From a virus (Duplodnaviria > Heunggongvirae > Uroviricota > Caudoviricetes), in the IMG/VR virus record IMGVR_UViG_2600255005_000007, positions 1 through 8,899 of that record: a stretch of 8,899 nucleotides of DNA. The stretch is one strand, 5' to 3'. The notes below the pieces were generated by a model. It ran no database searches, was not told the DNA's origin, and was given only the letters and a program-made list of their open reading frames with translations. The position numbers and the translations under genes are program-made. Below are positions 1 to 8,899 of this stretch, one piece after another. How positions within the stretch are numbered: position 1 is the stretch's first letter; the number at the start of each line of letters is the position of its first letter.

Positions 1-477
1 GTGATAAAGCGTGTTTTGCAGGCTGCGTTCGATGTCATCAACGCTGCGCCGCTGGCTGGCAGAGAGCGAGGCAATAAACGCTTCGGCTTTTTCCGGCGAC
101 TGCTGGCGATAAAGATTCGCCAGCCCGCGCACGGCGTTAGTGTTGCTACTGTCCATACGCAGCGTCTGCTGGTAATAGCGTTCAGCGGCGGGGTAATCTT
201 TGCGCGCCATCGCCACATCGCCCAGCCCCAGCACCGCATAGCTGTCGGCGTTATCGACATTGCGCGCCTGCTGGAACAGGCGTTCTGCCCGGTCGGGATT
301 ATTGGCTTTCAGCGCAGCATCGCCCTGCTGGATCGCCAGCCAGTAGCGATTCACCTTCAGCAGACTGTTCCATTTGTCGTTGTTGCTGCTGTGCGGATCC
401 AGCGCGAGGGCTTTTTCCAGATTCGCCACCGCATTAGCACGATCGCCATTCTGAGAATACGCCTGCCCCAGCGCCCC
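1..477 (-). pseudogene. bcsC: Internal fragment of cellulose synthase operon protein C (BcsC, TPR region). The N-terminal side is cut at 477/478; the gene continues past the window start.
   Basis: Reverse-complement translation of 477..1 reads GALGQAYSQNGDRANAVANLEKALALDPHSSNNDKWNSLLKVNRYWLAIQQGDAALKANNPDRAERLFQQARNVDNADSYAVLGLGDVAMARKDYPAAERYYQQTLRMDSSNTNAVRGLANLYRQQSPEKAEAFIASLSASQRRSVDDIERSLQN. I recognise this as the central TPR part of enterobacterial BcsC, nearly identical to my recollection of the E. coli protein. It is missing from the ORF track because it has no start or stop inside the window. Similarity ends abruptly at 477/478. Confidence 0.85.
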
Positions 478-2088
478 CGGAACGCGGCGAAAACATCAGA
501 GACGAATGCAGGTAACAGCGCGAAAGCGGCAGCTTCTTCAAAAACAGCCGCACAAAATGCAGCAACAGCGGCAGAACATTCAGAGACAAATGCCCGTGCG
601 TCAGAGGAAGCCTCCGCAGACAGTGAAGAGGCTTCCCGCCGTAATGCAGAGTCAGCCGCTGAAAATGCCGGAATCGCCACCACAAAAGCGCGGGAGGCCG
701 CAGCAGACGCAACAAAGGCCGGGCAGAAAAAGGATGAGGCTCTGTCGGCAGCGACACGAGCAGAAAAGGCGGCAGACCGCGCAGAAGCCGCAGCGGAAGT
801 GACTGCAGAGCCCTATGCGAATATAGTGCCGCCGCTGCCTGATGTATGGATACCGTTTAACGATACACTGGATATGATTACGGGGTTTTCGCCATCATAT
901 AAAAAGATTGTTATTGGTGACGATGAAATAACAATGCCAGGCGACAAGATTGTTAAGTTTAAACGTGCTTCAACAGCAACGTATATTAATAAGTCCGGCC
1001 AACTCAAGCTTGCTGAAGTTGATGAACCGCGATTTGAGCGCGATGGCTTATTGATTGAAGGACAGAGGACAAATTATCTGAGGAACTCAAATAAACCAGA
1101 CTCATGGACTGTTCATTCCGCACTGAATAAAACATTTGGCACTGATAAACAGGGGTTCAATTATGCCACGGTGACACCCACGGAAAGTATAGTGGGAACA
1201 ACAGGTGGCTATACTGTGCATGGTGTGGTTGCAGCAGACAGATTCCCGCTGGCAAGTGGTGAATGTTTCACTTTTTCGTGCCGGGTTAAAGGCGCTAAAG
1301 CACGATGCAGGTTAAGAGTTTCAGTTATTATTGGTGGAACAGATACATTCTCTGCTGACTCTTATCTTGATCTGGATACCCGGATCGCAACAGTAAGCGG
1401 TAATACATCCCTTATAACAGCCAAAGCTGAACAACAGGGCGAGTGGACCTACTATGAGGCCACTTATACAGCTAATACGGACATTGATACCGTTAACTGT
1501 GCTTTTTATATGACAAATAAAATAAGTAATGAGCCATTCTATGATGACTCAACATTAACCATGACGACGCCGCAAATTGAACTGGGCAATACGGCATCGT
1601 CATTTATTGTAACTACAATGCCAACAACACGCGCAAGTGATGTGGTTACTATCCCATCGCAGAATAACCTGTCAACACGGCCTTTTACGGTATTGTGCGA
1701 AGTAAGCAGGAACTGGAGTACACCGCCCAATGTTGCGCCAAGGATATTTGATGTTGGAGGGCACAGTATTGATGATAATTATTTATCGCTGGGGTTTGTT
1801 TCAACAGGAAAGATAAGCGCCAACGTAGGAATGGTTCAGCCACAAATTTCCTCAGATGGAGAAAGGTTCATTGTGGGTGTGAGAGCTAAATCTGATTTAT
1901 CAGTAAATGCAATATGCAGTGGTAATTATACAACAAACCTTAATGGTAAAATATTTGGAGTTACAGCAACATCGTACCGGTTTGGTGGGCAGACCGCAGC
2001 AGGAACGCGTCATTTGTTTGGACACATCAGAAATTTCAGAGTCTGGTTTAAAGAATTAAATGACAGGCAAATCAAGGAGGCAGTATGA
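478..2088 (+). CDS. Phage side tail fibre protein, 5'-truncated: Ala/Ser/Thr/Glu-rich shaft repeats followed by a distal receptor-binding region
   Basis: From 478 the frame reads RNAAKTSETNAGNSAKAAASSKTAAQNAATAAEHSETNARASEEA..., the low-complexity shaft repeat typical of lambdoid Stf-like fibres. A globular distal part follows, about 420 aa, ending ...TRHLFGHIRNFRVWFKELNDRQIKEAV. That tail resembles the usual end of LamG/ConA-like jelly-roll domains. The TGA stop at 2086-2088 overlaps the next ATG. There is no start codon of its own; the upstream open frame (1-477) is bcsC antisense. Confidence 0.8.
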   Translation, partial: RNAAKTSETNAGNSAKAAASSKTAAQNAATAAEHSETNARASEEASADSEEASRRNAESAAENAGIATTKAREAAADATKAGQKKDEALSAATRAEKAADRAEAAAEVTAEPYANIVPPLPDVWIPFNDTLDMITGFSPSYKKIVIGDDEITMPGDKIVKFKRASTATYINKSGQLKLAEVDEPRFERDGLLIEGQRTNYLRNSNKPDSWTVHSALNKTFGTDKQGFNYATVTPTESIVGTTGGYTVHGVVAADRFPLASGECFTFSCRVKGAKARCRLRVSVIIGGTDTFSADSYLDLDTRIATVSGNTSLITAKAEQQGEWTYYEATYTANTDIDTVNCAFYMTNKISNEPFYDDSTLTMTTPQIELGNTASSFIVTTMPTTRASDVVTIPSQNNLSTRPFTVLCEVSRNWSTPPNVAPRIFDVGGHSIDDNYLSLGFVSTGKISANVGMVQPQISSDGERFIVGVRAKSDLSVNAICSGNYTTNLNGKIFGVTATSYRFGGQTAAGTRHLFGHIRNFRVWFKELNDRQIKEAV

Positions 2089-2363
2089 AAGATTTAACTT
2101 TGAAATTTCCTGGTAACAGAGAGTTTAAATCCTTCCTGTCATCTCTTGACTGGGAGGAAGATGAAGACCTCCAGAATAAACTGTTAGTCGATGAAATTGG
2201 TTTCACCTACACAGAAACAGGGGTAACTGAAGAGGGAGAACCTGTCTGTATCCGGAATAACGGTTATTTTGTCAACATTCGCATTCTTGATGACTTGTTT
2301 GATGTTTCTGTATTCTCTGATTATGTCGTGGAGCTGGAAACACCGCTTCGGGAATGGAGCTGA
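2085..2363 (+). CDS. Small acidic protein (92 aa), translationally coupled to the tail fibre gene. Possibly a fibre chaperone or accessory protein; function unknown.
   Basis: ATGA start/stop overlap with the tail fibre gene. Strong SD (caAGGAGGcagtATG). Acidic composition (DWEEDEDL, TEEGEP). It does not match the classic Tfa sequence I know, so the function is inferred from position only. Confidence 0.6.
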   Translation: MKDLTLKFPGNREFKSFLSSLDWEEDEDLQNKLLVDEIGFTYTETGVTEEGEPVCIRNNGYFVNIRILDDLFDVSVFSDYVVELETPLREWS

Positions 2364-2375
2364 AAGGAGGAAATA

Positions 2376-2669
2376 ATGGATATAAGCCCCTTACTTCATG
2401 CACTTTGTGCTGTGGCTGCGCAGATACTGGTTGGTCTTTTTACCGGAAACTGGGCTTACGGAGCGATAGCCGGTTGTACGTTCTTCATTGCGCGTGAACA
2501 TACCCAGGCAGAATATCGCTGGATTGAAATGTTCGGGCATGGCAAGCGAATGAATATGCCGTGGTGGGGCGGATTTGATCCGCGCGCGTGGGATGTGGCA
2601 AGCCTGATGGATTTTGCTGTGCCGGTGGTGGCGTGTCTGCTGGTCTGGCTGTTGGTTAATCGTGGGTGA
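2376..2669 (+). CDS. Small integral membrane protein (97 aa, about 3 hydrophobic segments), prophage accessory or moron-like
   Basis: Strong SD (gaAAGGAGGaaataATG). Hydrophobic stretches are ISPLLHALCAVAAQILVGLFTG, AYGAIAGCTFFIA and LMDFAVPVVACLLVWLLV. It sits 12 nt after the previous stop. The 3' end lies next to the junction with the recombinase fragment, so the native C-terminus is uncertain. Confidence 0.6.
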   Translation: MDISPLLHALCAVAAQILVGLFTGNWAYGAIAGCTFFIAREHTQAEYRWIEMFGHGKRMNMPWWGGFDPRAWDVASLMDFAVPVVACLLVWLLVNRG

Positions 2670-2679
2670 AAAAAGGTGG

Positions 2680-3033
2680 GCTGTATATGCAACGGAGGAA
2701 GAAACCCGGGAGAAAGCGCGGATACAGAAACCGGGTGCCTGTCACATCTTCCGGCACTCGATGGCAACGCAGATGCTGGACAACGGCGCAGACACGCGGC
2801 ACATCCAGGCGATCCTCGGCCATGAGAAGCTGGAGACGACGCAGATCTACACGCGGGTAGCCATCGGTCACTTACAGGAAGTTCACGCGCTGACGCACCC
2901 GGAAGAGCAGGACGAGACGTGGACGGATCGGCACGTTGCGGATGCGGTGGCAGAGCCGCAGACGCGCCGGGAGCGTAATCACGCAGAGATGGAGCGGGCG
3001 CTGGTCAGCAGGAAACGCCGCCGGAGACGCTGA
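2680..3033 (+). pseudogene. C-terminal catalytic fragment of a tyrosine recombinase/integrase; the N-terminal two thirds are missing
   Basis: The translation contains ...KARIQKPGACHIFRHSMATQMLDNGADTRHIQAILGHEKLETTQIYTRVAIGHL. This gives the H-x-x-R box, the LGH box and the catalytic Tyr (IYTRV) of the XerC/D-phage integrase superfamily. The first catalytic Arg and the core-binding domain are absent. The upstream part of ORF 2614-3033 only overlaps the membrane-protein gene in another frame. The left boundary is approximate, about 2670-2700. Confidence 0.8.
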
Positions 3034-3110
3034 TGCAGGCCGGAAGCGTGATCATCGCCGGACTGCCTGAAAAGTTAGCGGGCGATCCCTGTAAGGCCGT
3101 GGGGTGAGGT

Positions 3111-3154
3111 GCAGGGCAGACAACCGCCTTCCCTGGCGGTTGACTGCCCCCTGC
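3111..3154. repeat. Imperfect inverted repeat / hairpin 1
   Basis: Perfect 8-bp core caaccgcc (3121-3128) / ggcggttg (3135-3142) with a 6-nt loop, ttccct. The outer arms gcagggcaga / actgccccctgc extend the pairing with one A-A mismatch and a 2-nt bulge. Confidence 0.7.
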
Positions 3155-3174
3155 CAGCGGAGTGCGCGGGGGTA

Positions 3175-3240
3175 AATGCCGTTCGCCCCGTGGAGGCAGG
3201 CGTGTCCCATGCGGCCACGGCGCACGGGGCAAACGTCATT
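3175..3240. repeat. Imperfect inverted repeat / hairpin 2
   Basis: The 18-nt arms aatgccgttcgccccgtg (3175-3192) and cacggggcaaacgtcatt (3223-3240) pair at 16 of 18 positions around a 30-nt loop. Confidence 0.7.
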
Positions 3241-3242
3241 CA

Positions 3243-3339
3243 ACATAATGCGGGGGATTATGCGCACTCTCGCCGGGTGGCAACGGCGGCGAACCCGACC
3301 CGCTGTGCGCGGCTCGTGTTCGCACAATCCGCATTATGT
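3243..3339. repeat. Imperfect inverted repeat / hairpin 3
   Basis: Perfect 11-bp outer stem acataatgcgg (3243-3253) / ccgcattatgt (3329-3339). After a GGG bulge, an inner stem attatgcgcac (3257-3267) pairs with gtgttcgcaat-type sequence (3318-3328) at 9 of 11 positions. The apical region is about 50 nt. Confidence 0.7.
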
Positions 3340-3975
3340 CTTGCGCCCCCGCGTTCAGCCCCTTAACCAGTGCCACGCGCAGCAGCTCGCTGGCGCTCGC
3401 TCCTGCCGTCTCAGCGGCGGTGTCCTTCCTCAGCGCCGCAGTCGCCGCCATCCCTGGCGGCTCCGGTGCCGTTCTGCGGCGGCGTCATCGTGTGGCAGTC
3501 AGTCAGAAAAGGGTGTCGGCCTGGCGGCCTCCGCTTGTAAGGGCTTTATGCCCGCCCGGCGTCGTCTGGCTGCGGCGGCTCGTGCCGCGCAAAAAGGCCG
3601 CGCGTCACTCGTTCCCGCCTCGCCAGCTTCCGCTGCCCGCCCCGGTCCGGTGTGGTCATGCAAAGGCCAGCTCCGGTCAGGCAGCGGTGCCACAGAGCGC
3701 CGTTCCGTCGCTTGCGGACTCTCTGCCGCCCGCACCCGCAGACCCCGCGCCGTGGCCCCGCCATGCCGCCGGAGGCGGCCTGGCGGCCCCCCGTCACGGG
3801 TTGCCGGAAACGGACTTAGTGGAAAGCGGAATGACAGGTTCGTGGCGGTGGTGATATGGTGAGCGGGCGTGAAAACGCGCGTCGGGAAAGCCGGGTTAAC
3901 GTGCTGTTAAATAATTAAAAGGTGATAGCCGTGAAGCCAGAAACGGCGCGGGCGGTAGCGTGTTAAAAAGTATGA

Positions 3976-4401
3976 CCCGCACCGGATCGTCCCGATGACC
4001 CGATAGGGCTGAGAGGCGGATTAAACTTATACCAATACGCGCCTAATCCAGTAAACTGGATCGATCCTTTGGGTTTGAAATGTGGGCAACCTGAATGGAC
4101 AAATCATGGATACAAACATTTTCCTCCAAAAAACAAATCATGGAAGGATATAATTAAATCAACAAAATCAGGCCCGGCAAAATATTCTCCAGATATTGAT
4201 ATTAAAACGTTGGAATACGATGTTTTTAATACAGGCACACCTGTTACGAACGGTAAACCATGGAAAGTAAAAGATATGGGAAAAGTTATTGGGGCCAGTG
4301 AGGGTAAAGAATCTCAATGGGTTCGAGTTGAACTTAGCGGTGGGACAATACATGGACATCCTATATCAATCGATGAATTCCGAAGGCTAACAACATCATG
4401 A
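3976..4401 (+). CDS. Orphan Rhs C-terminal toxin tip 1: core-end remnant plus a toxin domain of unrecognised family, about 110 aa, with no start codon of its own
   Basis: The open frame reads [49 protein letters not shown]...[27 protein letters not shown]. DPIGLxGGxNxYxYxxNPxxxxDPxGL is the hallmark boundary between the Rhs/YD core and its variable toxin tip. The 'start' in the ORF track (4069) is only the TTG encoding a Leu of DPLGL. Upstream, tatgacccg (YDP) sits in another frame, so the remnant is frameshifted. Confidence 0.8.
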
Positions 4402-4691
4402 ACATTGATTTCTTAGGAAAAAAAGGGAATATAGTTTTTAATGACTTCTCCCTGAAACAAAGCATCCCTCTTAATGAACAGCGAGATGAACTTAAGGAAG
4501 ATATGCTCCAGGTTGAATATCCTGGTGGGTATCTTTTGGATGTTGGGTGGCGACCATCTTTTGATATAAATGGGAAGTTTTATATTTGTTTAATAAAGGA
4601 TTTTGATTGGGATTATCCCATTTATAATGGTTCTGCGAAAGATATTGTCTCATTATTATTTGAAATTAACCAAGCTATAAATAAACTTTAA
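4398..4691 (+). CDS. Putative cognate immunity protein 1 (97 aa)
   Basis: ATGA overlap with the toxin stop. AT-rich. The small cytoplasmic-looking protein sits immediately 3' of an Rhs-CT, the canonical immunity position. A terminator hairpin follows. Confidence 0.65.
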
Positions 4692-4700
4692 ATAAACTTT

Positions 4701-4740
4701 AAAAAAACTGGGAAGAAAATTAAATCTTCCCGGCTTTTTA
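4701..4740. terminator. Bidirectional rho-independent terminator between immunity 1 and SymE-like copy A
   Basis: Stem ctgggaag (4708-4715) / cttcccgg (4726-4733), 8 bp including one G-U pair, with a 10-nt loop. It is flanked by an A7 run on the left (4701-4707) and T5 on the right (4735-4739). Confidence 0.7.
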
Positions 4741-5006
4741 TTATTTAACTCTCGTTCAGCACACTAAACATCCCGTTCCGCATCCCCTTAACCGCCTGTT
4801 TGACCTGGTAAAGTTCCCTGCGCAGTTCCTGTACTTCGTTGTTATCCGCTAGCAGGATCAGGCAACCTTCCGAGATCTTCACGGTAACGCCCGTGCCGAT
4901 CTCAAATCCCGCTTCTCTCAGCCATTTGGCGCTGATTTTGATCACCGGCGTGTCGCTTCGGTTGGGCAGATAGCCCACGGTACAGTGGCGCTGTGTTTTG
5001 GAAATG
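4719..5006. repeat. Direct repeat copy A (288 bp): right half of the terminator plus the SymE-like ORF
   Basis: Aligns base for base with 7311-7599, with 7 substitutions and 1 T-run indel. Identity ends sharply after ...gtgttttggaaatg. Confidence 0.9.
4745..4978 (-). CDS. SymE-family (AbrB/SpoVT-fold, type I toxin-like) protein, copy A, probably 5'-truncated
   Basis: The translation ...TVGYLPNRSDTPVIKISAKWLREAGFEIGTGVTVKISEGCLILLA... matches the SymE signature as I recall it from E. coli SymE ([48 protein letters not shown]). The only available start is the GTG that encodes the Val of TVGY, and it has no SD. The frame stays open upstream to a TAA with no start codon. Confidence 0.7.
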   Translation of the reverse strand: MGYLPNRSDTPVIKISAKWLREAGFEIGTGVTVKISEGCLILLADNNEVQELRRELYQVKQAVKGMRNGMFSVLNES

Positions 5007-5159
5007 ATATTTTTGTATTTAACCTGCTGATTAGATAGTAAAATAAACTTCGTGCAGATAGCTTACTTTGTCAGGGTGTGGCGGTAGCGTATGAACTATG
5101 ACGTGATGGTTTTAGTGATTTATAGACGAAACTGACAGTACGATCCGGACTTCGATTAG

Positions 5160-5621
5160 ATTGCGCGATTTGACCCGATAGGGCTGGCGGGGGGGCTGAA
5201 TCTTTATCAGTATGCGCCGAATCCGTTAAACTGGATCGATCCGCTTGGATTAAGTTGCTCTAGTGATGCAAAAAAATTATCTGGTAATTTAGGATCAGCA
5301 CCAAGTAGTCACTATCGACCACATCATATGGTTATGTCTAATTCCAGCGATGTGCGTATGCGGTGGTTACGTAGAAGGATGGATCGGTTAGGTATAGATA
5401 TAAACGATTCCAAAAATGGTGTATGGCTACCCAAAAACTCTGATTATCGGTTACCGGGGACAAAAGCTACTGCTCATGGTGGTGAAGGTGTACATGGAAA
5501 TGCATATAAACAACATGTGTGGGATACGTTGAAAAATGCAAGAACAAAAGCTGATTTTGAAGCAGGGCTTGCGCAACTTAAAGTAGAGCTAAGTACTGGC
5601 AAAACGTTTCCTGTCCAATAA
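5160..5621 (+). CDS. Orphan Rhs C-terminal toxin tip 2: HNH/EndoVII-superfamily AHH-type nuclease domain, no start codon of its own
   Basis: The open frame after TAG (5157-5159) reads [40 protein letters not shown]...[10 protein letters not shown]...[16 protein letters not shown]...[15 protein letters not shown]. The xHH dyad, the downstream NG-x-x-LP and the H-x-x-H-x-x-Y fit the AHH nuclease toxin family, here with PHH. The M at 5328 in the ORF track is internal, in the middle of the HH motif. Confidence 0.8.
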
Positions 5622-5634
5622 GGAGTATGATCAC

Positions 5635-6252
5635 ATGAAAGATTTTCTGAAAAGTTTATATGAAGATTACAATGGAAAGTATTCGGAACTGATAGAACAG
5701 ATGAACGGAGAAAAGGCTACTTGTAGATGGGGGTATGGTGTTATGCCTGCCTTCTCTATAGAACCTTATGCATCCGAGCTTTTAGGTCATAAACCGGGAC
5801 GAATGTTGAAAAATAACTCAATCGCAGGAGTAAATAAACAATGCTATTATGTTGATGAACAAAACAGGATAATAGAAGGAATTACATACGCCAGCCATCG
5901 TAAGAAAGATAATGAATGGATTGTGTATAGAAATTTTTATATTTACCAAGAAAATACCATTCTTGGGCTTTTGTATAGTAGTACATTTGAAGATAGTAAA
6001 AACACAGGATTGAATAAGATTGTATTTATAAGCATTGATAATAAATTAATAAATAATAAGTATACTTTCATGTATGATGGGGAGTATTCTGAGGTAGATT
6101 ATATTTATAATAAAGATAAAATAATAAAAATAGACCAAAGGGTATGGTCTTCGTTTTATTTTGAACGCACTTATCTGATAGAGTCAAATGATCCATTGAT
6201 TATTAATGAATACTTAGAAAATAGTGGGAACATCAGGATCTACCCTACTTAA
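5635..6252 (+). CDS. Putative cognate immunity protein 2 (205 aa)
   Basis: Good SD (taAGGAGtatgatcacATG) 13 nt after the toxin stop. Very AT-rich. Immunity position. I recognise no domain. Confidence 0.65.
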   Translation: MKDFLKSLYEDYNGKYSELIEQMNGEKATCRWGYGVMPAFSIEPYASELLGHKPGRMLKNNSIAGVNKQCYYVDEQNRIIEGITYASHRKKDNEWIVYRNFYIYQENTILGLLYSSTFEDSKNTGLNKIVFISIDNKLINNKYTFMYDGEYSEVDYIYNKDKIIKIDQRVWSSFYFERTYLIESNDPLIINEYLENSGNIRIYPT

Positions 6253-6345
6253 TTTATCAAAGTAAGAGACTAATATATGGACTATGATGCGGCTGTTTCA
6301 GGGATATGCGATTGAAGCCAGTAGTATGATCCTGCGATGGGGTAG

Positions 6346-6801
6346 ATTCACCGTCCTGATCCGATAGGGCTGGCGGGGGGAATAAACCTCTATGCTTATG
6401 CGCCGAATCCAGTAAACCACATTGATCCTCTTGGGCTATCTTGTGGAAAGGTTGGTAACGTTGAATATCGTAATTTTGAGCGTTCTCCGGGAATGTTTTC
6501 TCGGTTATTAAAGAATAAACGTGACTTTGATTATGTTGCCAGATATAACATCTCAAGATATAAAGCTACATTGAGAAAAAATAATCCGGATGGTTTTGGT
6601 AATATTAGCCATTATTTCGATGGTGTAGATGCAAAAGGAAATAAAGTCGTTATTGAGGTGGCGAATACAGGGCATAAATCTTCAAGCGGTGGTTTTGAGC
6701 CTCCACATATTAAAATTCAAATAAAAGACGCTGATAACAAAGTGATACATAATGCCAAATATTTTTTGGAAGATGATATATATAGAATTACGGGCAAATA
6801 A
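6346..6801 (+). CDS. Orphan Rhs C-terminal toxin tip 3: toxin domain of unrecognised family, about 125 aa, with no start codon of its own
   Basis: The open frame after TAG (6343-6345) reads [76 protein letters not shown]...PPHIKIQIKDADNKVIHNAKYFLEDDIYRITGK. It has the same core/toxin boundary motif. The M at 6493 in the ORF track is internal. Confidence 0.8.
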   Translation: MHRPDPIGLAGGINLYAYAPNPVNHIDPLGLSCGKVGNVEYRNFERSPGMFSRLLKNKRDFDYVARYNISRYKATLRKNNPDGFGNISHYFDGVDAKGNKVVIEVANTGHKSSSGGFEPPHIKIQIKDADNKVIHNAKYFLEDDIYRITGK

Positions 6802-7260
6802 ATGAAAAATATTAGAGAGTTAAATAATGCAGAATTCTCCGGGCTTATTAACAATGCTTTACCATTCTTACATATTAATCCTATAAGCGAAGCTGTTTGT
6901 ATTCATGCAGAAGCTTATAAAAGTGGTATTGATGTTAACTATATCCGTTGCAACGTTGACTGGGAGGGGTTTTCTTCTTTAACTGAAGCGTTGGAAACGT
7001 TATACCATGAATTATTTAAAGATGGTATTCCATCAGGCGAATTGTTGTTTTTTTACCCGTTTGATAGAACAAAGAAAGGGAATTATGGTGTTATACTGGA
7101 ATCATCTCAGCTATTAGATTTCTTAATAAAAGAGCATTTGAAGATTTATCCTGAATGTTTTAATGTAGAAATGTGTAGCTTCGGTTTTTATTTTATAGAT
7201 CACGAAATATTTTACGGCATGGAACATCCTGATTTTTTATATAGTTTCTGTGTAAGATAA
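6802..7260 (+). CDS. Putative cognate immunity protein 3 (152 aa)
   Basis: The ATG directly abuts the toxin TAA (taaATG), implying translational coupling. AT-rich. Immunity position. A terminator hairpin follows. Confidence 0.65.
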   Translation: MKNIRELNNAEFSGLINNALPFLHINPISEAVCIHAEAYKSGIDVNYIRCNVDWEGFSSLTEALETLYHELFKDGIPSGELLFFYPFDRTKKGNYGVILESSQLLDFLIKEHLKIYPECFNVEMCSFGFYFIDHEIFYGMEHPDFLYSFCVR

Positions 7261-7297
7261 TTAATAAAGTGAGGAGTATATTTCTCTTTCTTAATCG

Positions 7298-7332
7298 CCG
7301 GGAAAGGTAGATTAAATCTTCCCGGCTTTTTT
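7298..7332 (+). terminator. Rho-independent terminator after immunity 3, homologous to the one at 4701-4740
   Basis: Stem ccgggaa (7298-7304) / ttcccgg (7319-7325), followed by gc and T6 (7327-7332). Confidence 0.7.
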
Positions 7333-7599
7333 ATTATTTAACGTTCGTTCAGCACACTAAACATCCCGTCCCGCATCCCCTTAACAGCCTGTTTAACCTG
7401 ATAAAGTTCCCTGCGCAGTTCCTGTACTTCGTTGTTATCCGCTAGCAGGATCAGGCAACCTTCCGAGATCTTCACGGTAACGCCCGTGCCGATCTCAAAT
7501 CCCGCTTCTCTCAGCCATTTGGCGCTGATTTTGATCACCGGCGTGTCGCTGCGGTTGGGCAGATAGCCCACGGTACAGTGGCGCTGTGTTTTGGAAATG
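7311..7599. repeat. Direct repeat copy B (289 bp)
   Basis: See copy A. The repeat ends at the same ...ggaaatg, after which the primase-like frame begins. Confidence 0.9.
7338..7571 (-). CDS. SymE-family protein, copy B, probably 5'-truncated. The ORF track extends it to 7619.
   Basis: Same sequence as copy A with 2 amino-acid differences (N/D, and terminal S/R). The 16 extra N-terminal codons in the track (7572-7619) begin with a GTG that lies outside the repeat, on the antisense of the primase fragment, and has no SD. I treat that extension as fortuitous. Confidence 0.7.
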   Translation of the reverse strand: MGYLPNRSDTPVIKISAKWLREAGFEIGTGVTVKISEGCLILLADNNEVQELRRELYQVKQAVKGMRDGMFSVLNER

Positions 7600-8824
7600 G
7601 TGGGCCGCACTGCTGGCACACGGCGTCAGGCAGGTACTGATCGCCTACGACAACGATCCGGCGGGCAATGAGGCGGCGGTGAAACTGGCTTCTTCCTTAG
7701 CCGCTTCCGGGATCGCCACGTTCCGCGTACTGTTCCCGGCGGGCATGGATGCGAACGGTTATCTGTGCAGTGTGGCAGAGCCGGAACAGGCGTTCAGTCT
7801 GTTGCTGGATGGCGCGGTGCCCATGAGTGACCTGGCCGATGCGGAGAGTATCGCGCCGCAGGCCAGCGCGGAGCCTGCACACCTGACTTCATTAGCTGCC
7901 GGGGTTGCGGTCTTACCCGCAGCCGCCGCGCCTGCACCGGGCGTCAGCGTGGAAACCCTGGCCGATGGCGAACTGATGGTAGCCTTACCCGGCGAACGCT
8001 GGACTATCAGGGGCGTAAGCCGCAAACCGAACGTCGCCGCGATGAAGGTCAATGCGCAGGTGCTGGACACCAACAGCGGCGTGGTGTTCGCTGATGCGGT
8101 GGATATGATGAGCGCCCGCAGCCGTTCCGGTTATGCGCGGGCCGCAGCGGCAGAGCTTGGGCTTGCCGAAGGCGACCTGCGCCGTTCGCTGGGTAAGGTG
8201 CTGCTGGCGCTGGAGCACTGGCAGGCGGCACCGGAGCCGGAGAGCGTCGCCCCGGAGATGACGCCGGAAGATCGGGAGGCGGCGCTGGATCTGCTGCGCG
8301 ACGAGTGTCTTGCCGGGCGCATCGCTTCTGATATGGCGGCGTGTGGCGTGGTGGGTGAGTCCACCAACCTGACGGCGGCGTATCTGGCGGCGGTGTCACG
8401 CAAACTGGAGCGCCCGCTTGCCGTTCTCATCCAGTCGTCGAGCGCGGCGGGTAAGTCCAGCTTAATGGATGCGGTGCTCAATCTGATCCCGCCAGAGGAA
8501 CGGCTGCAATACAGCGCCATGACCGGGCAGAGCCTGTTCTACCTCGGCGAAACCAACCTGCAACACAAGATCCTCGCCATCGCAGAAGAAGAAGGTGTGC
8601 GCCAGGCGGCGTATGCGCTGAAACTGTTGCAATCAGACGGGGAACTGACCATCGCCAGTACGGGCAAGGACGACGCCAGCGGCAACCTGGTCACCAAACA
8701 GTACACGGTGAAAGGCCCGGTGATGCTGATGCTGACCACCACGGCGATCGACGTCGATGAAGAACTGTTAAACCGCTGCCTGGTGCTGACGGTGAACGAG
8801 TCGCGGGAGCAGACGGAGGCCGAA
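7598..8824 (+). pseudogene. Internal fragment of a Toprim / P-loop NTPase primase-helicase-like protein of an integrative or conjugative element, truncated at both ends
   Basis: VLIAYDNDPAGNEAAVKLA...FRVLFPAGMDANGYL looks like the distal Toprim DxD region. Later, LIQSSSAAGKSSLMDAV is Walker A-like and HKILAIAEEEG is Walker B-like. The codon usage is GC-rich and coding-like, and all minus-strand ORFs here are shadows. There is no native start because the frame enters from the SymE repeat. At the 3' end the reading frame runs into the rrn leader and stops there fortuitously. Confidence 0.7.
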
Positions 8825-8899
8825 CTGCTCTTTAACAATTTATCAGACAATCTGTGTGGGCACTCGAAGATACGGATTCTTAACGTCCTCGGACGATAA
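8824..8899 (+). promoter_or_regulatory. rRNA operon leader including the boxA antitermination element; 16S rRNA expected just downstream of the window
   Basis: actgctctttaacaatttatcagacaatctgtgtgggcactcgaagatacggattcttaacgtc is identical to my recollection of the E. coli rrn leader downstream of P2. boxA tgctctttaacaa is at 8826-8838. The following small hairpin differs in a compensatory way (cgtcctcggacg versus cgtcgcaagacg), consistent with a natural rrn variant. Confidence 0.8.

Follow-up and report, generated by a model that had tools for sequence, protein, structure and literature searches.

The DNA analysed here is a stretch of 8,899 nt (the window; positions 1 to 8,899 of IMG/VR record IMGVR_UViG_2600255005_000007), in which a gene body of the SymE family occurs twice, each time facing the immunity gene of an orphan Rhs toxin/immunity cassette. 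BLAST placed the window at 100% identity in AEMF01000001.1 of assembly GCA_000208585.2, a 'contig' of 4.46 Mb. The SymE copies, their immediate surroundings and the Rhs cassettes comprise the following features (ORF, open reading frame; related loci are referred to by L numbers):

4745-5006, minus strand: SymE copy 1, by alignment to intact genes a 5'-truncated relic of 86 codons plus stop (Pfam PF08845, 43.9 bits)
7338-7599, minus strand: gene body of SymE copy 2 (PF08845, 55.1 bits), cut at about 7600-7602
4708-4733, both strands: predicted bidirectional intrinsic terminator hairpin between immunity gene 1 and SymE copy 1 (terminator scan)
5007-5136: cassette junction, in which filler of about 59 nt leads to a degenerate Rhs-core remnant running into the core motif of orphan 2
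3996-4691, plus strand: orphan Rhs cassette 1, with core remnant DPIGL...DPLGL, a 110-aa toxin ORF (4069-4401) and a 97-aa immunity ORF (4398-4691); BLAST match to L001
5137-6252, plus strand: orphan Rhs cassette 2, with core remnant, an AHH nuclease toxin (5328-5621; Pfam PF14412) and a 205-aa immunity ORF (5635-6252)
6323-7260, plus strand: orphan Rhs cassette 3, with core remnant, a 102-aa toxin ORF (6493-6801) and a 152-aa immunity ORF (6802-7260), converging on SymE copy 2

The SymE copies are embedded in a direct repeat of 289 nt (4719-5006 versus 7311-7599), which differs by 7 mismatches and one 1-nt gap according to MAFFT and BLAST alignments. The gap reflects a run of five or six A residues between the stop codon and the terminator hairpin, outside the SymE-like ORF, while all seven substitutions are located inside the minus-strand SymE-like frame ending at 4745 and 7338. 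As stated in the first-pass annotation, which was made from the sequence alone, five of these are synonymous (CGA/CGC Arg, TAC/TAT Tyr, GTC/GTT Val, GCG/GCT Ala and GAG/GAA Glu) and two are not (AAC/GAC, N/D; AGT/CGT, S/R). For copy 1 versus copy 2 the Nei-Gojobori method counted 60.2 synonymous and 197.8 non-synonymous sites and gave a synonymous divergence (dS) of 0.088 and a non-synonymous divergence (dN) of 0.010, corresponding to a dN/dS of 0.116. Given 23% synonymous sites, the binomial probability of at least five synonymous changes among seven is 0.009. Both copies exceed the gathering score of the Pfam family SymE_toxin (cut-off 29), which confirms their proposed assignment to SymE.

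Intact homologues of 97-109 aa are common and conserved, and DNA of about 91% identity was found in 233 of 5,426 complete E. coli genomes. The widespread occurrence of these genes bears out the proposal that the ORF had been a real coding gene. Alignment to them defined the native 5' end, which consists of a GAGG or GGAG Shine-Dalgarno (SD) sequence, an ATG and the codons MAEHDITPEVT, followed by ISKTQR... at the point where the window repeat starts; in annotated E. coli genes the start reads GAGG...ATGGCTGAACACGATATTACGCCAGAAGTCACC directly followed by ATTTCC. The first 11 codons are absent from both window copies, which leave the native sequence within 3 nt of each other. The N-terminus and a C-terminal helix (EVQELRxELYQVKQxVKGM) are conserved in Escherichia, Salmonella, Citrobacter, Erwinia and Pectobacterium. 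This helix-like tail had been suspected to be foreign to E. coli SymE, a view that has to be abandoned, since the K-12 protein aligns through the first part of the helix and has itself a longer tail; the alignment to the NCBIfam profile PRK13605 extends to position 88 of 113.

The SymE/SymR pair of E. coli K-12 is an SOS-induced type I toxin-antitoxin (TA) system, and the RefSeq name of SymE is now 'nucleoid-associated protein'. The window copies share the Pfam family with K-12 SymE and are 46% identical to it over 68 aa, comprising the AbrB-like core and the start of the C-terminal helix; moreover, each is a small gene bordering a hypervariable locus that is exchanged horizontally. However, the window subfamily has another N-terminus (MAEHDITPEV...) and adjoins Rhs cassettes, whereas K-12 SymE adjoins hsd/mcr. 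Because the equivalog profile PRK13605 assigned the window copies 40 and 46 bits at a cut-off of 132, the window SymE is, as judged by profile scores, a subfamily paralogous to K-12 SymE and not its orthologue. A profile search of PDB sequences yielded no match for the SymE subfamily.

In intact relatives, the region from -12 to +52 around the SymE ATG (L008 7336-7399), that is the SD and the first 17 codons, is near-invariant in nucleotides across genera, third positions included. Its majority fraction is 0.97, compared to 0.68 for codons 18-30, and both the sequence farther upstream and the gene body diverge. The window holds only the last ~18 nt of this block (4989-5006 and 7582-7599). Antisense RNA pairing, translational control or a function as recombination anchor are possible reasons for such invariance. 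Between the stop codon of the upstream gene, which encodes an Xre-type helix-turn-helix (HTH) protein, and the SymE SD, a stem-loop at about -70 to -35 of the ATG (L008 7282-7315), which the window lacks, is kept by compensatory changes, with 8 of 12 pairs doubly changed across Escherichia, Erwinia, Yokenella, Salmonella and Lonsdalea. As the terminator of an antisense RNA this strong and covarying structure was discarded, having no consistent U-tract on either strand and being missing from several loci.

The first-pass annotation reported that neither copy had an ATG or an SD and concluded that the native 5' end had been lost. This is correct for both copies within the window, but not for copy 2 beyond it: four near-identical sequences (L006, L007, L008 and L011) carry at its position an intact 97-aa SymE gene with ATG and GGAG SD, whose product is identical to that of copy 2 over 86 codons. 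L008 (GCA_037023105.1) matches window positions 4011-7602 at 99.94% and 7613-8821 at 100% identity, and at the join it contains an extra 1,505 bp comprising the SymE 5' end with SD and ATG, a gene for a 136-aa Xre-HTH protein and the N-terminus of a CHC2/Toprim primase. In the window, SymE codon 12 instead meets primase codon ~289 at position 7600, and the GTG of copy 2 at 7619 lies in the antisense of the primase gene. This 7600 junction is absent from all 5,426 complete E. coli genomes. Up to the join, the two SymE copies are exactly identical for 48 nt. Since the join thus coincides with the end of an exact repeat, an assembly-graph branch point, we consider it highly likely that the truncation of copy 2 is a contig-join artefact of the record. 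The sequence from 7599 would then continue into GACTTCTGGCGTAATATCG...

Further joins of this kind involve the flanking features of the window:

1-477, antisense: interior of bcsC, abutting the interior of a prophage tail-fibre gene
476-2706: prophage tail-fibre region, 99% identity to E. coli prophages
2706-3033, plus strand: C-terminal fragment of a XerC-type tyrosine recombinase, joined to prophage DNA at 2706 (Pfam Phage_integrase; BLAST to full-length XerC genes)
3054-3995, plus strand: conserved GC-rich (66-68%) spacer, holding a 228-aa ORF (3176-3862) without family match
7600-8821, plus strand: internal fragment of a CHC2/Toprim primase, from about codon 289 onward (Pfam Toprim_2, Toprim_3; BLAST to the primases of L002, L006 and L008)

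At 2706 prophage DNA meets the XerC interior. At 8821 the primase interior stops, and the sequence that follows occurs about 7 times per E. coli genome and represents the rrn leader of a complete 16S rRNA gene, whose start lies 71 nt beyond the window (source-record region L005 4468-6009). At 73 nt after this gene, where the rest of the rrn operon would be expected, lies an unrelated adhesin gene. No Ns are present. Because such gene-interior joins to unrelated DNA cluster, without Ns, within 8.9 kb, the source record very probably resembles a pseudo-chromosome in which contigs were concatenated gap-free at repeat boundaries. Two ORFs, one of 695 aa at 1-2088 and one of 93 aa at 7338-7619, are chimeric.

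Alternatively, the source strain might have suffered a real and recent deletion of 1.5 kb, from SymE codon 12 to primase codon ~289. The junction at 7600 shows only 1-2 nt of microhomology, as in illegitimate deletions, and the 10 nt after the join match a primase allele other than that of L008, two genomes differing at this place. However, the deletion would have had to end exactly where the 48-nt repeat shared with copy 1 ends, its junction recurs in none of the complete E. coli genomes, and three further gene-interior joins to unrelated DNA, including that of primase interior, rrn leader and isolated 16S gene, are found in the same 8.9 kb. We regard such a deletion as unlikely.

For copy 1 the situation is different. 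Homology to intact genes begins at CATTTCCAAAACACAGCG, and the reading frame is open from an upstream TAA, with a GTG at 4978 as the first canonical start, yielding a product of 77 aa. Neither an SD for this GTG was found nor was a minus-strand promoter predicted upstream of copy 1. Upstream of the shared CATTTCC, copy 1 enters the filler of about 59 nt and the degenerate Rhs-core remnant. This junction (5007-5136) aligns with the sequence preceding the core of orphan 3, and the filler aligns weakly with the end of the spacer that follows XerC. The same junction of truncated SymE, filler and core is found again in E. coli R32_14_1F, at two places in E. coli 06-00048 and on seven further contigs (loci L003, L004 twice, and L006-L012), and the exact 77-aa product belongs to a cluster of 428 members that includes Escherichia albertii and Escherichia fergusonii. 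At the level of sequence comparison, this shows the truncation of copy 1 to be real and inherited, and the copy itself to be a relic. The first 20 residues, missing from the 77-aa product, rank among the most conserved of the family; most likely, copy 1 is not expressed as protein.

Copy 1 is thus a scar, the 3' 86 codons of a SymE gene left between orphan cassettes 1 and 2. In the simplest history, an old deletion would have removed the 5' part of SymE along with the HTH and primase genes, XerC and the greater part of the spacer, and the resulting junction would then have been copied along with its cassettes, either inherited or moved between loci. The adjoining HTH-primase-XerC module was accordingly probably lost in an ancestor together with the 5' end of copy 1. 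A XerC-type attachment (att) site at the common breakpoint of the two copies, which break within 3 nt of each other, was considered and rejected: a contig join where the exact repeat ends explains the break of copy 2, the flank of copy 1 consists of divergent spacer-end and Rhs-core remnant sequence with no second core-like site, and other lineages have their fixed junction elsewhere, in L035 at about codon 44.

Some relics are annotated as genes of 261 nt by PGAP, namely at L003 11756-12016 and at L004 11756-12016 and 16822-17082. The first codon of these annotated versions is ATT, and many relics therefore stand in public protein sets as genes.

The bias toward synonymous substitutions had been taken to argue that the ORF was, or still is, a protein-coding gene. 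The intact homologues support the first part of this statement. The second part is weakened by the origin of the variants: an intact E. coli gene at the yafV rhs locus shares the states TAC, GTC and GCG with copy 1, and N/D (D77N), GAG/GAA (E85E) and S/R (S86R) are polymorphisms common to intact and truncated copies, leaving CGA as the only private one of the seven states that distinguish copy 1. An intact E. coli gene with all copy 1 variants was searched for and not found, the best intact match having 97.4% identity and three of the four distinguishing synonymous states. Since copy 2 is the sequence of an intact gene and the copy 1 variants occur in intact genes, the synonymous bias is uninformative on the function of the relic. 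By these comparisons, the 5:2 pattern is best read as standing variation of a gene family under purifying selection, which supports that the ORF was a gene and is silent on its present function. The signature could have reached copy 1 by descent, gene conversion or both.

A contrasting explanation holds that both copies are truly truncated yet functional, producing a SymE of 77-86 aa from GTG or ATT starts under ongoing purifying selection. It would account for the low dN/dS of 0.12 between the copies, for the frame being open in all truncated copies sampled with mostly synonymous private variants, and for the 261-nt gene annotations; the 77-aa ORF, moreover, keeps the entire Pfam domain and the helix. 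It conflicts with the finding that copy 2 is intact in near-identical genomes, by which the comparison becomes one of a relic with a functional gene, with the presence of copy 1 variants in intact genes, with the lack of a detectable SD and promoter, and with the loss of the conserved N-terminal residues. In addition, conversion from many intact paralogues can mimic constraint, and for the synonymous excess in truncated copies gene conversion is the likelier cause compared to residual constraint. Altogether, functional short SymE variants appear improbable.

The Rhs cassettes provide the context of both copies. An 81-nt core motif occurs three times, at 3996, 5171 and 6357, and the Rhs-core signature PxxxxDPxGL is combined with a toxin tip and a small immunity ORF. 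The repeat family D2 is represented in cassettes 1 to 3 and D3 in cassettes 2 and 3. Between each SymE copy and the immunity gene on which it converges lies a hairpin, and that at copy 1 scores as terminator on both strands. Pfam and NCBIfam contain no family for the toxin tips 4069-4401 and 6493-6801 or for the immunity ORFs 4398-4691, 5635-6252 and 6802-7260. Arrays of orphan Rhs C-terminal toxin and immunity modules have reportedly arisen by C-terminal displacement (Jackson 2009; Poole 2011; Koskiniemi 2014). The window resembles such arrays in that it has three short core remnants (DPxGL), each with a variable toxin tip and an immunity ORF. To our knowledge, descriptions of these arrays do not treat a convergent SymE as a regular part of the cassette, and the searchable literature agrees.

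The extent of the SymE-Rhs linkage was determined in a survey of one genome per species, which covered 37 loci with 58 SymE copies in more than 20 named species of Enterobacterales, from genera including Escherichia, Shigella, Citrobacter, Erwinia, Yersinia, Yokenella, Buttiauxella, Rahnella, Kluyvera, Phytobacter and Atlantibacter. In 51 of the 58 copies the end of an Rhs core on the opposite strand was located at most 1.6 kb from the SymE stop codon, at a median distance of 781 nt, which equals one toxin tip plus one immunity gene; these figures apply to the window-type subfamily selected by the search patterns and are not valid for all PF08845 proteins. Six further copies had an Rhs core end within 2.6 kb and one lay at a locus edge. 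VgrG was encoded upstream in 11 survey loci. Concordantly with the earlier proposal of a systematic tail-to-tail arrangement with Rhs modules, convergent SymE-Rhs pairing is near-obligate in the window-type subfamily. It had also been stated that no such pairing was known to be described. We likewise found no analysis of the association, but the pairing is visible in public annotation and is named in passing in several papers: the searchable literature mentions SymE inside Rhs, type VI secretion system or CdiA/HecA clusters, for example those of Erwinia, Pantoea, Proteus and Dickeya.

Arrays show an alternation of Rhs-core fragments with SymE, either complete or fragmentary, and the junction is fixed per lineage, at codon 12 in Escherichia and at about codon 44 in L035. 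The latter locus (L035 1-10400, Enterobacteriaceae metagenome-assembled genome UBA5654) carries, behind a single full rhs gene, 8-9 SymE fragments that alternate with Rhs-core fragments at a spacing of about 1.2 kb; the junction of SymE at ~codon 44 with the Rhs core is repeated there, and 65-aa ORFs starting MSVIISLHGK... read across it. Such arrangements invite the explanation that the conserved DNA matters and not the protein, SymE genes or relics and the Rhs core forming two homology arms for the swapping and stacking of cassettes, with relics persisting as cassette ends. That array cassettes are bounded by an Rhs-core and a SymE fragment with a junction fixed within each lineage would be expected from this, as would the occurrence of SymE bodies and upstream regions in all combinations and of the identical relic junction next to different cassettes. 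However, conservation at the protein level together with synonymous-biased divergence indicates that the intact gene is selected as a protein too. We consider this a possible but rather doubtful explanation on its own; it is compatible with the explanation preferred below and does not exclude it.

Beyond the cassettes, the recombinase and primase fragments of the window belong to a larger unit that is complete in relatives. It is composed of SymE, preceded by the Xre-HTH gene, diverging genes for a primase of 983 aa and a XerC-type recombinase, the GC-rich spacer, and then the next core remnant, toxin, immunity gene and SymE. The unit occurs in Escherichia and Salmonella and at least partially in Citrobacter sedlakii, Erwinia tracheiphila and Lonsdalea, and units are arranged in tandem with a period of 6.6-8.8 kb. 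Three tiers of GC content were observed (window 2801-4000 and 7601-8400; L006): 62-69% in primase, XerC and spacer, 53-55% in HTH and SymE, and 28-40% in the toxin and immunity genes. The base composition fits an imported primase-XerC-spacer backbone. The nearest plasmid-borne primases, with 51-57% identity, are from Ralstonia, Paraburkholderia and Janthinobacterium, and also from Enterobacter, Salmonella and Providencia. The spacer ORF of 219-228 aa (window 3176-3862, plus strand; L006 11117-11776) is conserved, its coding status being uncertain as ORFs overlap on both strands, and its 219-aa homologue had no match in Pfam or PHROG.

The plasmid-borne primases closest to that of the unit include those of two small circular records, which consist of such units. 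Shigella flexneri NZ_CP055112.1 (L057; 8,758 bp) is a whole unit with 98% identity to one chromosomal tandem unit of E. coli EC77, and Lonsdalea populi NZ_CP072857.1 (L058; 11,289 bp) comprises two units and a RelE/DinJ pair. A collapsed tandem repeat might account for the Shigella circle, but less readily for the Lonsdalea record. A common att core was not found, and relic junctions differ between lineages. There was no sign of phage-satellite packaging, since viral contigs yielded a single SymE locus and nothing related to the primase. An origin of the SymE 5' end from the element was dropped from consideration, as the MAEHDITPEV start is also present in loci without primase or XerC. While SymE was linked to Rhs in 37 loci, primase or XerC was present in 5, and the SymE-Rhs link is therefore the more basic one.

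Acquired interbacterial defence arrays, reported by Ross et al. in 2019, are said to be recombinase-associated. Genes for XerC/D-type tyrosine recombinases next to arrays of orphan immunity genes have been described (Zhang et al. 2012, PMC3482391). The loci analysed here share with these polyimmunity or acquired interbacterial defence arrays the adjoining recombinase gene. They differ in that the recombinase resides in a high-GC backbone of ~6 kb along with a CHC2/Toprim primase, Xre-HTH and SymE, that this backbone occurs in tandem with toxin plus immunity cargo and also as small circular records, and that they belong to Enterobacterales, whereas those arrays are from Bacteroidales.

A tentative interpretation, which the tandem units and circular records support without proving it, is that SymE, Xre-HTH, primase, XerC and one or more Rhs toxin-tip/immunity cassettes constitute an episome of 7-9 kb, existing as a circle or as a tandem integrant downstream of rhs genes. 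Such an element might, with the same reservation, be a vehicle that supplies enterobacteria with new Rhs cassettes, SymE and an antisense RNA acting as its maintenance module. It is likewise conceivable, at no higher probability, that the invariant 5' block (-12 to +52) or the Rhs core remnant serves as its recombination anchor and that relics like copy 1 are footprints of decayed elements.

Regarding the antisense RNA, the first-pass annotation saw no SymR-like unit. For SymR itself this was substantiated: the Rfam family RF01809 had no match in the window (E up to 10) or in 8 related loci (gathering score), with a K-12 control of 95 bits. Another family, however, does match antisense to relatives of the window genes. 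Rfam isrA (RF01385) scored 99-122 bits antisense to 109-aa homologues in Salmonella, Escherichia, Citrobacter and Yersinia, and in the window it gave a sub-threshold match to each copy:

4875-4982 and 7468-7575, plus strand: isrA matches antisense to SymE, 33.6 and 31.9 bits (gathering score 51)

IsrA is a Salmonella island RNA of 423 nt, antisense over the 5' end of STM0294.1n and inversely expressed with it (Padalon-Brauch et al. 2008, PMC2330248). Judging by the Rfam isrA match, STM0294.1n would be a SymE homologue. The Salmonella Typhimurium pair is encoded in SPI-6, and the Salmonella locus has the layout VgrG-DcrB-Rhs-Imm-SymE-HTH-primase-integrase, which resembles that of the unit described above. 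In contrast, the window copies are of the 97-aa subtype with a 12-codon deletion and reach only 32-34 bits with isrA, and the overlapping 5' region is missing from both. An antisense promoter at the start of the isrA model was looked for and dismissed, no recognisable -10/-35 elements preceding this position.

A second Rfam family, Ssr1 (RF02627), aligned on the plus strand over both copies with 265-274 bits (4500-5008 and 7057-7601). The 3' 270 nt of this model are the antisense of the window-type SymE body. The model of 654 nt, however, represents a whole predicted intergenic region (L022 8025-8678, Shigella flexneri), and in Shigella this comprises an unannotated 106-aa Rhs immunity ORF, a bidirectional terminator and the antisense of a frameshifted SymE. 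The RNA detected experimentally is ~150 nt long, its 5' end lying 130 nt inside the region (Wang et al. 2016, PMC4782007). This 5' end falls inside the 106-aa immunity ORF and the mapped RNA does not reach SymE. Ssr1 was consequently rejected as the missing antisense RNA, the mapped transcript being located in the immunity ORF upstream of the terminator. The Rfam small RNA (sRNA) family Ssr1 is thus largely an immunity gene plus the antisense of a SymE pseudogene.

The functional product of the repeat could also be sought on the plus strand, as an IsrA- or Ssr1-like sRNA antisense to the SymE body or as a promoter for the downstream orphan cassette. Both Rfam models do align to this strand over both copies, and IsrA and Ssr1 have been detected in Salmonella and Shigella, respectively. 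However, both matches are below the gathering score in the window, the mapped 5' end and the ~150-nt band of Ssr1 belong to the immunity ORF, no plus-strand promoter was predicted inside either copy, and the isrA model start lacks recognisable promoter elements. A plus-strand function consequently has little to recommend it.

Altogether, we consider it likely that the repeat is a SymE gene body at the boundaries of Rhs cassettes, copy 1 being a relic and copy 2 an intact gene cut at a contig join. The Enterobacterales SymE subfamily would form the conserved 3' boundary of Rhs toxin/immunity cassettes, convergent with the immunity gene, a bidirectional terminator lying between the two. Intact SymE is presumed to be a type-I-TA-like, AbrB-fold nucleic-acid-binding protein that would be held in check by a cis-antisense RNA, IsrA in the case of Salmonella; this TA-like role is suggested by family membership. 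The protein may stabilise the cassette or element that carries it, and, together with the Rhs core, SymE DNA may also act as the second homology arm when cassettes are exchanged.

Several observations weigh against this explanation. The contig join was deduced from the structure of the record and from relatives, and a recent deletion of 1.5 kb would look identical. The 86-codon frame was open in 11 of 11 truncated copies sampled, and variants private to truncated copies amounted to 11 synonymous versus 5 non-synonymous, or 9:5 after removal of two that were seen in the intact L050 gene, in a comparison of these 11 copies with only six intact genes in a family with many paralogues per genome. 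With regard to function, K-12 SymE itself is at present annotated as nucleoid-associated protein, family membership being what links the genes analysed here to a TA function. SymR is absent, as is a promoter before the isrA model start, and a pattern scan that recovered the K-12 LexA box detected none upstream of the intact relatives L008, L050 and L006 or in the window. For an intact homologue, the AlphaFold2 model was unusable (mean predicted local distance difference test score 50), although the order of secondary structure elements, beta-alpha-beta-beta plus a long helix, is consistent with an AbrB/MazE-like swapped-hairpin fold.

The SymE family and Rhs orphan arrays are known; what is new is SymE as a recurrent and previously unanalysed neighbour of the cassettes. 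The results have corrective value, in that one of two apparently truncated genes would be an assembly artefact and the selection signal would be inherited from intact genes and silent on the present function of the relic. Furthermore, a scattered annotation curiosity becomes a rule: in practically all loci sampled, from more than 20 named enterobacterial species, a SymE subfamily is found opposite an Rhs toxin/immunity cassette, and in Escherichia, Salmonella, Citrobacter, Erwinia and Lonsdalea it is accompanied by a primase-XerC backbone whose base composition is foreign. If this unit is truly mobile, it would provide a testable mechanism for the building and exchange of orphan Rhs arrays, usually credited only to homologous recombination in the core, and would give a SymE paralogue a biological role outside the SOS response.

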